A stretch of DNA of 64,000 nt. It comes from a virus (Duplodnaviria; Caudoviricetes). A program made the translations under genes and the position numbers. Each line of letters starts with the position of its first letter. Position 1 is the first letter of the stretch. Under the pieces are notes generated by a model. The model searched no databases and was not told where the DNA came from. It saw only the letters and a program-made list of their open reading frames with translations. Positions 22,992 through 60,947 of this stretch are shown here, piece after piece. The stretch is taken from IMG/VR virus record IMGVR_UViG_3300042196_000418; one strand, 5' to 3'.

Positions 22992-23510
22992 CTAGCGCTT
23001 CCGGCTGAGCGCTTCCTTGATGTCACGGTCCAGCTCTGCCGCCGTGAGCGGACGACCCAGCTCCTGGATCTTGGTCGTCGGCGCCTTCAGCGTCTCGGCG
23101 TAGGCGTGCGTGTAGCCCCTGTCGAAGTCCTCGATGTCTTCTCCCCTGCGGAGGTTCGCCTGGAGATTGTGGAGGGCCAGCGCGGCGAACGACTTGCCGT
23201 GCTTGAGGACATTTTCGGCCGCGGCCCGTGCCCCATGGCGCTCGCCGCGCAACCATTCCCCAGACAGCACGCGCTTCGCCTTCGTTGCGTGATGTCGCGA
23301 TGCTGGCAACTTCTTCGTCGCGTGGTGCCGCTTTGAGGGTGGACGTCCCCATTCAGCGGGATCAACGTCAGCCTCCCAGTCGCGTCGTGCTTCGCCGAAG
23401 TCGCCAGGTCCAAGGCCGTGACCTTGCGCGAAGGATGCCGCACGAATCCACTGCGCGAGCGTGAGGCCGCTCGCGTTCGTAACGAAGGATTCAGCCCGTT
23501 TACGCGCCAT
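22992..23510 (-). CDS. Hypothetical protein with HHATK repeats and C-terminal tag (AELDRDIKEAL)
   Basis: Direct translation. Confidence 0.75.
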   Translation of the reverse strand: MARKRAESFVTNASGLTLAQWIRAASFAQGHGLGPGDFGEARRDWEADVDPAEWGRPPSKRHHATKKLPASRHHATKAKRVLSGEWLRGERHGARAAAENVLKHGKSFAALALHNLQANLRRGEDIEDFDRGYTHAYAETLKAPTTKIQELGRPLTAAELDRDIKEALSRKR

Positions 23511-23727
23511 GCGCCGAGTTTATCGCCGACGGAGACAAAACGCGACACCTGCGCGCGTTCTGTCCCCGGCTACTTGACGAGCTTCAGGACTGCTTCCCTC
23601 GGCCGATCCTCGACAGCGGTCTCGTCCTCGAAATCATCCGGCGGGTGAGCGCGACCATCCTCCAGGTCGACCAAGGCGTCTTCGGTCACCTGTACAGTGT
23701 CTTGGTCATCGGTTCTCAATCGAGTCT

Positions 23728-24516
23728 TCAGCGACGATCCGCGCGAAGTTCCTCGCGTACGATCTGCCTCAAGGCCGAGCGATCATCGGCGATCTGAGCC
23801 TTCGCCCTGAGATTTCGGATCGCCCCATAGAGTCCGGCAACGCCCATGATCCCGAGTGCCGTGAGCGCACCGATCTTGAGCACGCCTAGAATGGCAACCG
23901 CCTCCGACCCCTTACCTTCGTCGCTACGCTGCCAGATCGTTTTTGGCAGGGGTGCCGGCTCCACGCTCTGGAGCGTGACACCATGGGCCCGAGCAAGTGA
24001 TCGCAACTGCTTGAGTCGATCCCACCATTGCTCGAACGTCTCCCAGCTCGTCGCGATCTTGTTCCACCACGAGCTTTTCTCGTGTGTAACGAACTCACCC
24101 CACTCCGCGAGTGTGGGCGTCACGTCCGCTGCAATCCACTGAGCGATCGTGTTGGCGTCGGGATCCCCCGTGTTCGTCGTCAACCACACCGCCAGATCGT
24201 TCGTGAGAGCTCGAAAGCCCGTCGTAAGTTGGGCGATCGCACGATCGCGGTCGGCGGCTGTGTGGAATAGTTCCTGGCCGATCTGGGCGGCAGGTTTTTC
24301 AGCCTCCCCACGTCCGCCGATCCCGCGGGTCGCGGTCCAGAGGCGCTTGGCACCGCGACTGGCTTGGAAGGCATCGCTGACGACCGGCATGACGGGGCGA
24401 AGCACGGCGCCGACCGTTCGATCGCGTGCGTAGTCGATGGTCTGATCGGCGGCCCAGCTCGCGATCCAGTCGCGATCGCGATCCAGGGGGCCGTAGCTGC
24501 CGCGATCTCGCGTCAT
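23728..24516 (-). CDS. Membrane protein (C-terminal TM), paralog of the C-terminal half of 30365-31546
   Basis: ATGA overlap at 24513-24516; HxxxDR..W..W..LR..A...G..P..LP.TxW shared; N-terminal RGSYG. Confidence 0.75.
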   Translation of the reverse strand: MTRDRGSYGPLDRDRDWIASWAADQTIDYARDRTVGAVLRPVMPVVSDAFQASRGAKRLWTATRGIGGRGEAEKPAAQIGQELFHTAADRDRAIAQLTTGFRALTNDLAVWLTTNTGDPDANTIAQWIAADVTPTLAEWGEFVTHEKSSWWNKIATSWETFEQWWDRLKQLRSLARAHGVTLQSVEPAPLPKTIWQRSDEGKGSEAVAILGVLKIGALTALGIMGVAGLYGAIRNLRAKAQIADDRSALRQIVREELRADRR

Positions 24517-25070
24517 CGTTCGTAGTCCTGAGTATAGCCGCGACCGACACGCCACGGCGCTCCATACTCACCGCGCGCATTGCCAGACACGCGCGGCGCG
24601 GGCGCGAAAGATTTCGCGCTGGCTGGCTGTTTCTCCGGGAACAACGGAGGCGGAGCAGTCTTCCAGATGGAAATACCCGCTTTCTTAATCTGTGTCTCTG
24701 CGACATCCGCTGGACCGCTGATCACATCTCCTCGAACCTTCAAGATCATGTCGTCACGGCCACCCGCCTTGATTCGCACGATCATCTCTTCGAGTGAGTA
24801 GATCTTGCCCTCTGGTCCCCTGAAGGCTGCCGTCTTGTCGTCGAGCATCGTCGGACCCACCATCACGAACTCAAGCCGTTGCTCGTCTCTCGGCATCGGG
24901 GGCATCGAAGACGGAGCTGCCCCTTCATCGCGAGCTGCCCCGCGTCCCCCGCCGAATCCTCCGCCTCCACCAAAGCCCAGGTTCCGGATCAGAAGGTACA
25001 GCCCATAGCCTACGCCGAGACCCAGGCCGAACTTGACCACACCTTCCGCGGCAGAACTTTCAGCCACCAC
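24513..25070 (-). CDS. N-terminally anchored membrane protein with ExbD/TolR-like C-domain
   Basis: TM GLGLGVGYGLYLLI; MILKVRGDV..IKKAGI resembles the ExbD/TolR periplasmic domain. Confidence 0.45.
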   Translation of the reverse strand: MVAESSAAEGVVKFGLGLGVGYGLYLLIRNLGFGGGGGFGGGRGAARDEGAAPSSMPPMPRDEQRLEFVMVGPTMLDDKTAAFRGPEGKIYSLEEMIVRIKAGGRDDMILKVRGDVISGPADVAETQIKKAGISIWKTAPPPLFPEKQPASAKSFAPAPRVSGNARGEYGAPWRVGRGYTQDYER

Positions 25071-25106
25071 GCACCTCCATCATTGCGGTCACGCCTGCAC
25101 GACAAA

Positions 25107-59480: not shown

Positions 59481-59531
59481 CTCGCGACACCGAAGCGCGC
59501 TCGTGGTGTAGCCTAGAGCCAAGGAGCACAC

Positions 59532-59825
59532 GTGGCGAGCTGCACCGTAGCGAAGTACCTCGAAGTTCTCTCGCACGAGCTCGTGCGCTACGACGTGCAA
59601 ACGAGCGCGCGCGAAGCCAAGCGAGGGCGCGTGAACATCTATCGCCTCGCTCTGCTCATGGAAGCGCTCCAGAAGGTGCGCAACAACGTGGCCAGCCGAA
59701 CATCGGATAGCGAGGCTGATAAGGCCAGCTTCCGCATGGCGATGTACCAGCACTTCGAGCGCGACTTCTCGCCGGTGAAGAAGGTCGTCGCGCAGATCGA
59801 AGCGGGGACCTGCAAGATCAAATGA
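59532..59825 (+). CDS. Hypothetical protein
   Basis: AAGGAG RBS. Confidence 0.65.
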   Translation: MASCTVAKYLEVLSHELVRYDVQTSAREAKRGRVNIYRLALLMEALQKVRNNVASRTSDSEADKASFRMAMYQHFERDFSPVKKVVAQIEAGTCKIK

Positions 59826-60166
59826 GCGATCGCCTGCTCATACTGCCGGAGTTCGGACTGCTGAACCGACAGCCGAAGGTCCCGCACGTCGCCCGCGTCG
59901 TCGCGCAACGTGACGTCCCCAACGAGTACGACACGCCAATCACGTATACGGTCCGGCAGGGCCGCAACGGCAAGGACTGGTGGATCGCCGCCTCGCGCGA
60001 GGGCATGCGCATGAGCGATACGCTGCACACCAAAACGCCCTCGACAGCCGGCGGTTGGATCATTGCTGTCCAGACCGGGCGGGTTCGTGTCGGCGAGAAG
60101 AAGACCAAGGCCCAGCTTGACCAAGAGCTCGACGAGGCCCTCGCGAAGCTCAAGGAGAAGCGGTGA
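59822..60166 (+). CDS. Hypothetical protein with C-terminal tag
   Basis: KKTKAQLDQELDEALAKLKEKR. Confidence 0.75.
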   Translation: MSDRLLILPEFGLLNRQPKVPHVARVVAQRDVPNEYDTPITYTVRQGRNGKDWWIAASREGMRMSDTLHTKTPSTAGGWIIAVQTGRVRVGEKKTKAQLDQELDEALAKLKEKR

Positions 60167-60606
60167 GCGACCTACACGACCGCATCGCGAAGGCGCTCGG
60201 CTGGAGTACGAGGGACGTGCAGTCACTGTCGATGCAGTCGCTGCGCGACCTGGTTCGTCCCGTCGATGCCGACCTCGCGCGGGAGATGGACTACGTGATC
60301 CAGTCCGGGGCGTACATCGTCGGAGCGCCGGCCGCGGCACCCTCAAAGCCGACAGCTGCGAAACCGGCCAAGAAGATCGCGATCGCGAAGGACATCGAAG
60401 CCGCCGTCCATGCCGCGCAGCTCTACATCGGCAAGGGACTGACGCTGCGGATCGCCGACGAGCAGAAGCTCTACAAACGCATGAACAGCAAGATCGCGGC
60501 AGTCGCGAAACAGCGCGGCATGGACGAGGCCGCTGCTTATCAGCAGATCATGGGCGAGGCGAAGCGCCGCGGGGGCCTTCAAGCAATCCCAGGAAAGGAC
60601 ATCTGA
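60163..60606 (+). CDS. Hypothetical protein
   Basis: Coupled ORF, AAGGAG RBS. Confidence 0.7.
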   Translation: MSDLHDRIAKALGWSTRDVQSLSMQSLRDLVRPVDADLAREMDYVIQSGAYIVGAPAAAPSKPTAAKPAKKIAIAKDIEAAVHAAQLYIGKGLTLRIADEQKLYKRMNSKIAAVAKQRGMDEAAAYQQIMGEAKRRGGLQAIPGKDI

Positions 60607-60947
60607 TGGCCCGTTACGAAGTGATCGAATCGAAGGTATGGAAGCGTGACGACGGCGCGAGCGCGAGTCCCTACGGCGCCGTGCCCTGGACGAGCGCCGC
60701 CGAGGAAAAGCGCTGGACGCTGGTCACCCGCGGCTACACGGTTCGCGACAACGAACGCGGTACCGTCGGCATCGGGCGCGTGCCCTGGGCCACACGTGCC
60801 GAGGCACAGGAGTGGGTGGACACGGCGACCGCGCGCCACGAAACCCAGCGCCGCGAGCACGAGGCACGGTACCCCAAGAAGACCCCCGGGCAGCTCCAGC
60901 GGGAGATCGACGCGGCGCTGGGGACGAAGCGCAAGCGGCGGCACTAG
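60606..60947 (+). CDS. Hypothetical protein with C-terminal tag
   Basis: TGATG coupling; KKTPGQLQREIDAALGTKRKRRH. Confidence 0.75.
   Translation: MARYEVIESKVWKRDDGASASPYGAVPWTSAAEEKRWTLVTRGYTVRDNERGTVGIGRVPWATRAEAQEWVDTATARHETQRREHEARYPKKTPGQLQREIDAALGTKRKRRH

Follow-up and report, generated by a model that had tools for sequence, protein, structure and literature searches.

The 64,000-nucleotide stretch of DNA considered here, taken from virus record IMGVR_UViG_3300042196_000418 (Duplodnaviria; Caudoviricetes) and called the window in what follows, carries on otherwise unrelated proteins the copies of a single short peptide, K[ST]PxQL[DE]REIAxAL, which we call the tag. About one protein in ten is tagged in this phage and its relatives. 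The reading that we prefer, and to which we give a little less than an even chance, is that the tag is an address or docking label that would co-localise many small basic proteins through one common reader; we infer both the binding and the partner.

A regular expression (regex) applied to the six reading frames and a scan with a hidden Markov model (HMM), as an earlier note on this DNA had proposed, return the same set of nine full copies, listed in Table 1. The full copies score 24-31 bits; the next-best match of the HMM is the remnant at 48714-48740, with 9.0 bits, followed by a fragment at 58061 on the minus strand, with 7.4 bits, and the rest reach at most 4.8 bits. In positions 1-22991, both scans find zero copies. 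A degenerate DNA pattern for QLDREIA matches the window three times, against no match in 100 shuffles. Tallied by position, there are five N-terminal copies, four C-terminal copies and one degenerate internal copy, and the translated open reading frames (ORFs) agree with the placement claimed for the N-terminal copies (genes starting at 48969, 49336, 50340 and 55835) and for the C-terminal ones (genes 22992-23510, 36546-37211, 59822-60166 and 60606-60947). Once the tag is masked, the bodies of the carriers in the window have no BLAST similarity to each other, which bears out the view that it sits on unrelated proteins. By a rough gene count, about 8% of the genes of the window are tagged.

Table 1. 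Copies of the tag along the window, followed by the sigma-54-type cassette (aa: amino acids).
Feature	Position	Strand	Gene and placement	Evidence
Tag copy PLTAAELDRDIKEALS	23004..23051	-	C-terminal in gene 22992-23510 (172 aa)	regex, ORF translation, HMM
Tag copy KRSRSQLDREIANVVP	36567..36614	-	C-terminal in gene 36546-37211 (221 aa)	regex, translation, HMM
Decayed copy MAKTPAQLDH, then off-motif	48714..48740	+	17-codon ORF 48711-48764	HMM
Tag copy RKTPAQLEREIAEALS	48972..49019	+	N-terminal in gene 48969-49325 (118 aa)	regex, translation, HMM
Tag copy TKTPAQLDREIAESLS	49345..49392	+	N-terminal in gene 49336-49914, member of a conserved ~189-aa family	regex, translation, HMM
Tag copy SKSPRQLEREIAEALR	50364..50411	+	near N-terminus of gene 50340-51101 (253 aa)	regex, translation, HMM
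Degenerate internal copy MAHSTKK-RSGSQRDLNEWL	52225..52281 (His motif 52231)	+	gene 51985-52668	comparison with relative P0033
Tag copy PKRSTQLDRDIAQAIS	55844..55891	+	N-terminal in gene 55835-56140 (101 aa)	regex, translation, HMM
Tag copy KKSPAQLDREIAAALT	57836..57883	+	followed by a ~50-aa tail to 58033, like a helix-turn-helix (HTH)	regex, translation, HMM
Tag copy KKTKAQLDQELDEALA	60098..60145	+	C-terminal in gene 59822-60166 (114 aa)	regex, translation, HMM
Tag copy KKTPGQLQREIDAALG, Q20/D24 variant	60876..60923	+	C-terminal in gene 60606-60947 (113 aa)	regex, translation, HMM
Two GGGTA-N6-TACCC boxes 53 bp apart, then GGCACG-N5-TGC	47886..48005	+		

The earlier note had listed two remnants, at 48711 and at about 57837, which turn out to be of different kinds. 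The first is indeed decayed, and the stop codon of its ORF overlaps the GTG of the next one. The second scores as a full copy, without a canonical start: it begins 20 nucleotides past the stop codon of the phosphomannomutase (PMM) gene, at 57814-57816, in frame +1 relative to that gene, and the interval between that stop and the tag at 57836 contains no ATG, GTG or TTG. It is either a dead gene, or the product of a frameshift or reinitiation on the PMM gene.

The portability of the tag is apparent when its carriers are cut at the tag: the resulting 390 flanking parts form 140 domain clusters and 143 architectures, one cluster of N-domains being paired with up to 9 different clusters of C-domains, and likewise in the reverse direction. 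Genes 51985 and 50340 provide an example. The degenerate copy in gene 51985-52668 lies at the position of the full tag of P0033, a protein of a relative, after a homologous N-terminal domain; this N-terminal domain and the body of gene 50340, separate in the window, are fused in P0033 around the full tag. The tag acts as a universal joint between small, combinatorially shuffled domains. The idea that it is a terminal tag holds for the N- and C-terminal copies of the window, but across the clade the tag is often internal or doubled. Alignment A3, a 38-column profile of 37 different carriers whose columns number the residues in this text, was used to collect representatives from the clade: among the best 146, the tag is internal in 113 cases, N-terminal in 17 and C-terminal in 3, and it occurs twice in four proteins. 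This sample is enriched for internal copies because the profile also scores a motif upstream of the tag; in the window and the loci of relatives, a less biased sample in which each copy was placed against the gene calls, about two thirds of the copies are N-terminal, about one fifth are C-terminal, and the rest are internal. Two tags, or tandem tags, are found in P0110, P0133, P0134, P0234 and P0257.

The upstream motif, [RS]HHATKK, usually precedes the tag. The tag itself is 14-22 residues long, with core consensus KK-[S/T]-P-AQLDREIAEAL and extended consensus [RS]HHATKK-SPAQL[DQ]REI[AD]E[AV]L-[AS][KR]P. The 26,929 residues of the carriers (137 representatives) contain 167 occurrences of H[AS][TS], against about 13 expected by chance on a rough estimate from residue frequencies, an excess of about 12-fold: 92 are directly before the helix, and 75 elsewhere, in interdomain linkers rich in Gly, Ser and Arg. 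Another HAT motif follows within 20 residues of the helix in 30 of 141 tags. Many carriers are strings of beads in which HATKK linkers separate successive domains of 50-90 residues. In the window, the product of gene 22992-23510(-) has two HHATK motifs besides its tag (His codons at 23291 and 23324); gene 36546-37211(-) reads AHSTM...AHARK upstream of its tag (motif site 36644(-)); gene 50340-51101 has SHATKR about 55 residues downstream (50529(+)); a further site is at 52231(+). Among the relatives, P0076, P0188 and P0114 are some of the proteins with such sites. The motif [RS]HHATKK may be a site of cleavage, modification or binding in its own right.

Two paralogous Gly-rich proteins of the window, probably membrane proteins (44667-45194(-) and 45558-45980(-)), begin with ...MARRHHATMQKLDGIRE[KE]I...; here the short helix after HHAT is not the tag but bears a loose resemblance to it (Q-x-LD-x-IRE).

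In a DNA alignment of the nine copies, identity over the tag core is 0.81, 0.87 and 0.48 at codon positions 1, 2 and 3. Third codon positions are free to vary, and selection therefore acts on the peptide and not on the DNA, as had been argued from the synonymous variation of the codons. The columns of A3 that are invariant or nearly so are K14, Q18, L19, R21, E22, I23 and L27. Positions 20 and 24, on the same helical face, co-vary: the pair is D/A in 153 copies, Q/D in 32 and E/A in 16, with only two copies each of Q/A and D/D. One acidic residue is thus retained on that face. Both resulting forms, QLDREIAEAL and QLQREIDEAL, are common, and both are present in this genome, the copy at 60876 being of the second form. 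The N-cap residue is S or T in 197 of 219 distinct copies and D or N in none, and the E of I-A-E is kept in 182.

In 51 members of the conserved family of about 189 amino acids to which gene 49336-49914 belongs, the tag can be compared with the protein that carries it: column identity is 0.92 in the tag, 0.58 in the next 11 residues, which form a linker, and 0.79 in the body, where 6% of the windows are as conserved as the tag. For this family, AlphaFold2 models the tag as a helix over residues 5-16, with a predicted local distance difference test (pLDDT) score of about 60, then a loose linker that separates it from a confident body (pLDDT 80-95). Foldseek gives no match in the PDB at E <= 0.001 to this body, taken from a model with pLDDT 80. 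The tag is thus predicted to be an amphipathic helix with basic flanks, in agreement with the earlier note: its hydrophobic moment is 0.54 and its mean hydrophobicity near 0; L19, I23, A26 and L27 form its hydrophobic stripe; and the core is acidic, with net charge -2. The residues [ST]-P-x-Q are a classical helix N-capping box. When the tag profile is compared to the PDB, only non-significant matches appear, the best with a fragment of REV1 (E 0.012). A complex prediction for self-association, with four copies of the 38-residue tag segment of A3, scores 0.17, against a mark of 0.42, which counts neither for nor against it.

The carriers are small and very basic: their median length is 194 amino acids and their median isoelectric point (pI) 9.98, or 9.84 without the tag, with 93% above pI 8, against a median pI of 8.66 for the untagged, crudely called ORFs of the same DNA. 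Few bodies can be named, the list being HTH_8, Sigma70_r4, ParB-like, GNAT, SPOR and DUF6496. Pfam and PHROGs give almost no names to the tagged proteins of the window and about 30 of their neighbours, and among 137 representatives of the clade they name only DUF6496 (4), Sigma70_r4, GNAT, SPOR, a ParB-like protein and a transcriptional regulator. In the window, the product of gene 55835-56140 consists of the tag, then SRKRKRRSYHAT, then a Fis-type HTH_8 domain.

How far does the tag extend? From a set of 5.8 billion proteins, a tag profile with short flanks (A2) retrieves 232, whose contigs measure up to 532 kb; the bodies of the best 120 of these 232 matches belong to 24 unrelated clusters, and the tag stands at either terminus or inside the protein. 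With A3, an exhaustive HMMER search of 1.84 billion representatives (50% identity) yields 652 clusters at E <= 1e-3, and a 16-column model of the tag recognises it in 146 of the best 150. The other four, long proteins with many weak repeated matches in which this model finds no copy, are for these reasons taken as coiled-coil false positives. Tag-bearing contigs are 180-530 kb long and come from sediment and soil, as do the metagenome runs that carry the DNA; these are DNA runs, with no RNA run listed among them, and this was weighed neither for nor against expression. Four loci of relatives, whose contigs measure 302-532 kb and have a G+C content of about 62-64%, contain 6, 4, 8 and 8 copies per 20 kb; 22 of the 152 genes called in the relatives' loci are tagged, about 14%, excluding the copy by which each locus was retrieved.

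In one genome each of 185,579 prokaryote species, the DNA pattern for PAQL[DE]REIAEAL has no match, and the looser pattern QL[DE]REIA-x-AL has 56, none of them in the context K[ST]P; these patterns cover only some codon choices, and rare cellular copies are possible. The 2.9 million contigs of IMG/VR hold one true match to the tag, on a short contig, and a second short contig holds a relative of the tagged family of about 189 amino acids; 50,697 GenBank phage records contain zero copies. The earlier note would have abandoned its interpretation had the motif been common in genomes without the shell genes, and within the codon choices covered no true copy came to light in the 185,579 species. 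Judging from these searches, the tag appears to be limited to a single group of elements, all very large, the present clade, and it can serve as a sensitive sequence marker of this clade in metagenomes. The motif string has no relevant match in the open-access literature.

The helix is autonomous and more conserved than its carrier, its tether varies, its position is free, its unrelated carriers number in the hundreds, and its surface is constrained and compensated in charge: taken together, these properties argue for a docking helix that something else reads. They are also those by which short linear motifs are recognised, since the tag is short, position-independent, set in disordered context, more conserved than its flanks, and found on unrelated carriers. 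In detail, the docking surface would be a helix of about 12 residues, amphipathic and acidic, with [ST]-P-x-Q as its N-cap; akin to a short linear motif, it would be set in a basic disordered stretch, with [RS]HHATKK upstream and [AS][KR]P or a basic run downstream. Such a helix needs only a flexible tether, and could therefore work at the N-terminus, at the C-terminus or between domains, and move with any small domain. One common reader would then gather in one place a numerous and rapidly changing group of accessory proteins, all small and very basic, including those with Fis-type HTH, sigma region 4, ParB-like and GNAT domains. The destination would most likely be the site where the phage DNA is condensed.

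The leading specific version of the docking reading, drawn from the example of phage T4 and in itself doubtful, is that the destination would be the assembling head and that the carriers would be internal or ejection proteins. Several observations weigh against this version or against docking as a whole. The tagged fraction, about 14% of the genes in the relatives' loci and about 8% in the window, would imply a wide variety of head cargo. Seven of the copies in the window belong to a train of mostly small genes on the plus strand, headed by the sigma-54-type cassette of Table 1, and head cargo is normally made late. In neither the window nor five loci of relatives was a capsid, portal, scaffold, terminase or prohead-protease gene recognised, so that the link with a head lacks local support. 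Finally, HHATKK stands without the helix at many domain junctions, which pure docking leaves unexplained.

It is also possible, if on the unlikely side, that the tag is a sorting signal that operates across the proteome, as a signal peptide or a nuclear localisation signal does, and directs at least a tenth of the phage proteins to a single compartment of the phage's own making, either the interior of the head or a condensate or factory that contains DNA. Recognition would then proceed through contacts of the helix with a groove or a helix bundle, and HHATKK would be a second, separable code, a site of cleavage or modification. If the tag is such a sorting or loading signal, it would be the broadest code of this kind known in a phage and would pick out the set of proteins that accompany the DNA or assemble at a single site; in biotechnology it could be used for packaging or co-localisation, as the capsid-targeting sequence (CTS) of T4 and the encapsulation peptides of bacterial microcompartments (BMCs) already are. 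Huge phages are mostly protein dark matter, and here one peptide of 14-22 residues ties together at least 652 clusters that are otherwise unannotatable; the tag is a single experimental handle on all of its carriers, by reporter fusion or peptide pull-down.

The same helix could dispense with a separate reader. An improbable alternative to docking is that the tag is a self-associating sticker, whose helices would bundle and thereby join all tagged proteins in a single assembly, possibly on the phage DNA. Encapsulation peptides likewise combine an amphipathic helix with a linker of low conservation (PMC4594438), the proteins with double or tandem tags would supply the multivalency that a network requires, and the conservation of nearly the whole surface of the helix, with its charge swaps between positions 20 and 24, suits a symmetric interface between helices. 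After REV1, the nearest look-alikes of the tag profile in the PDB are designed coiled-coil heptads of the form EIAxALx, at a non-significant E of 0.11 or weaker. However, the helix spans only about two heptads and its hydrophobic face (L, I, A, L) is small, the majority of carriers have just one copy, and with a net charge of -2 in the core, like helices would repel each other unless the basic flanks compensate.

If the second motif is taken as the primary one, the tag becomes a processing joint, at which a maturation protease would cut beads-on-a-string precursors into single domains: the site would be [RS]HHATKK, whether or not the helix follows it, and/or IAE, and terminal copies would be what is left of genes split at such joints. 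We hold this to be quite improbable. It would account for the excess of H[AS][TS], both before the helix and in the linkers between domains, and for the second HAT motif that follows the helix in 30 of 141 tags. Domains of one kind are found in various fusion orders as well as on their own; since the product would be cut anyway, fusion and fission would be neutral, which would explain the shuffling. The motif IAE, moreover, matches the [LI]-x-E logo of the prohead protease of T4 (PMC9026906), with its E largely kept. On the other hand, a cleavage site needs no helix of 12 residues conserved over its whole surface; the N-terminal copies are conserved at 0.92 right after the Met, where there is nothing upstream to remove; C-terminal copies would free just a small peptide; and no protease is tied to the motif. 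If this alternative were true, these phages would use a polyprotein-like logic.

The composition of the carriers suggests yet another role, a very improbable one, in which the basic flanks (HHATKK, KK[ST]P, RKRKRR) would bind DNA in the manner of histone tails or SPKK-like motifs, and the helix, or its Ser/Thr-Pro, would modulate the binding, for example by phosphorylation. The carriers are indeed very basic, and most of the bodies with a name are of DNA-binding types (HTH_8, Sigma70_r4, ParB-like, transcriptional regulator). Aspartate and asparagine also cap helices well; their absence at the N-cap, where nearly all copies have S or T, indicates that a hydroxyl may be required. A dual-specificity phosphatase and a protein of the histone-deacetylase family are found in relatives' loci. 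Yet the part that is best conserved is the acidic helix, which should not bind DNA, the basic flanks are far more variable than the helix, and no kinase is linked to the motif. Least credible of all is a mere evolutionary joint, an in-frame recombination linker or selfish in-frame insert that would serve domain swaps and have no protein reader: domain shuffling does fall exactly at the tag, and copies in the same genome share identical runs of up to 22 nucleotides that could seed exchange (49345 and 57836, for example), but conservation is at the level of the peptide and not of the DNA, with an identity of 0.48 at third positions, and both the co-variation within the helix and its conservation above that of the carrier body point to a function of the peptide itself.

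Four other candidates were rejected. The helix is acidic and its hydrophobic face small, which speaks against a membrane-targeting helix. The motif that binds the beta-clamp is QL[SD]LF or QLxLxL, and the tag has an invariant Arg in position 4. A SAP, HeH or Rho_N fold would have a second helix, of which there is none, nor is there any match in Pfam. A repeat at the DNA level is discarded since third codon positions are free.

We now turn to the surroundings of the tagged genes. The sigma-54-type cassette falls within ORF 47831-48682, as called mechanically, and the true start of this gene is therefore probably near 48020 (MSKRRR...). After the last tagged gene, gene 60993-61823(+) encodes a GH25 lysozyme/muramidase with a hydrophobic C-terminal tail, an assignment that comes from the Pfam match of a homologue in metagenome contig L103 (6212-7054); the same contig has a second GH25 gene at 2484-3338, with a PG_binding_1 domain. 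Gene 51184-51921(+) has collagen-like Gly-Pro-Thr triplet repeats and a globular C-terminal domain, and collagen-domain genes are found beside tagged genes in a relative's locus (L107, 13676-16613). The GH25 and collagen-like repeat genes suit a tailed phage. The genes for sugar and lipid functions at 54521-57816(+) and 26848-27612(-), encoding mannose-1-phosphate guanylyltransferase, phosphomannomutase and a lipid desaturase, are all untagged, and so is the block of glycosyltransferase, methyltransferase and sugar-epimerase genes in 1-22991. In relatives' loci (L101, 7545-8672; L102, 2752-3363 and 4739-5602) there are a full DnaJ, a dual-specificity phosphatase (DSPc) and a histone-deacetylase-family protein; it is possible that these proteins, near tagged genes, are readers or modifiers of the basic linkers.

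The earlier note had also proposed a shell domain, the C-terminal domain shared by an array of five genes at 40073-44609(-), and this proposal finds no support: the domain's look-alikes are immunoglobulin-like beta-sandwiches, with no sign of shell formation. In the ESM Atlas they go with families Cep192_D3 and HYDIN-like, at TM scores of 0.4-0.5, and the domain's own clusters are labelled mostly Viruses/Uroviricota, which likewise suits a tailed phage. Sequence searches with three large neighbouring proteins against solved structures gave nothing useful.

It remains to compare the tag with known systems. Polymorphic toxins (for example CdiA, with its VENN motif) and the polyvalent proteins of phages and conjugative elements, reportedly described by Iyer, Aravind and co-workers in 2017 and by Aoki and co-workers, have a short invariant motif at the border where variable modules are exchanged. 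With the tag, in contrast, both sides vary, free termini are also occupied, and no toxin, immunity or secretion context is seen around it. The cargo-loading peptide of encapsulins is extended and C-terminal and is encoded beside the gene of an HK97-fold shell, whereas the tag is predicted to be helical and is not confined to C-termini; Pfam and PHROG scans of the proteins searched show no encapsulin. Giant phages such as phiKZ, 201phi2-1 and SPN3US load many inner-head and ejection proteins into the head by means of propeptides that the prohead protease removes (PMC5694885), but these are family-specific, 80-160 residues long and cut at [ASG]-x-E, unlike a shared tag of 14-22 residues.

The encapsulation peptides of BMCs are closer. 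They are amphipathic helices, joined to their cargo at either terminus by a poorly conserved linker (PMC4594438); with 15-20 residues, they bind the shell and form trimeric bundles and condensates (PMC4594438, PMC12339742, PMC11157265). The tag resembles those of PduP, PduD, EutC and CcmN in its predicted helix (residues 5-16), its variable linker (identity 0.58) and its presence at either terminus, and in a similar hydrophobic moment and net charge, a comparison that is only indicative. Encapsulation peptides, however, share only a hydrophobic pattern, whereas the sequence of the tag hardly changes across hundreds of families, and their cargo consists of metabolic enzymes, whereas the carriers of the tag are small basic proteins, mostly unnamed. 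No BMC shell gene (BMC-H/T/P) is among the Pfam matches of the scanned proteins of the window and of five relatives' loci.

The likeness with the CTS of T4, carried by IPI-III and Alt, is of another kind: a short conserved peptide sits on accessory proteins that are diverse, basic and quick to evolve (PMC3012670, PMC9026906). The CTS can also be transferred to foreign proteins, and the I-A-E of the tag resembles the logo [LI]-x-E of the gp21 protease. Diverse, basic and poorly conserved carriers are what we find as well, with a median pI of 9.98 and 140 flanking clusters of which almost none has a name. But the CTS occurs only at the N-terminus, as a propeptide of about 10 residues that directs cargo into the scaffolding core of the prohead and is cleaved after loading, and it is found on a handful of proteins per phage. 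The tag is also C-terminal, internal or doubled (four C-terminal copies in the window, and 113 internal copies in the 146 representatives, with a profile that favours them), is found on about 8-14% of the genes, and is accompanied by HHATKK. The two have no significant sequence relationship. The tag is closest to BMC encapsulation peptides in its architecture and to the T4 CTS in its biology, and it is a member of neither family, since its placement is not that of a CTS, the loci examined hold no BMC shell genes, and the sequence itself is conserved. A portable targeting or docking peptide is of a known kind; what is unusual is the breadth of the tagged families and the second motif that accompanies the tag.

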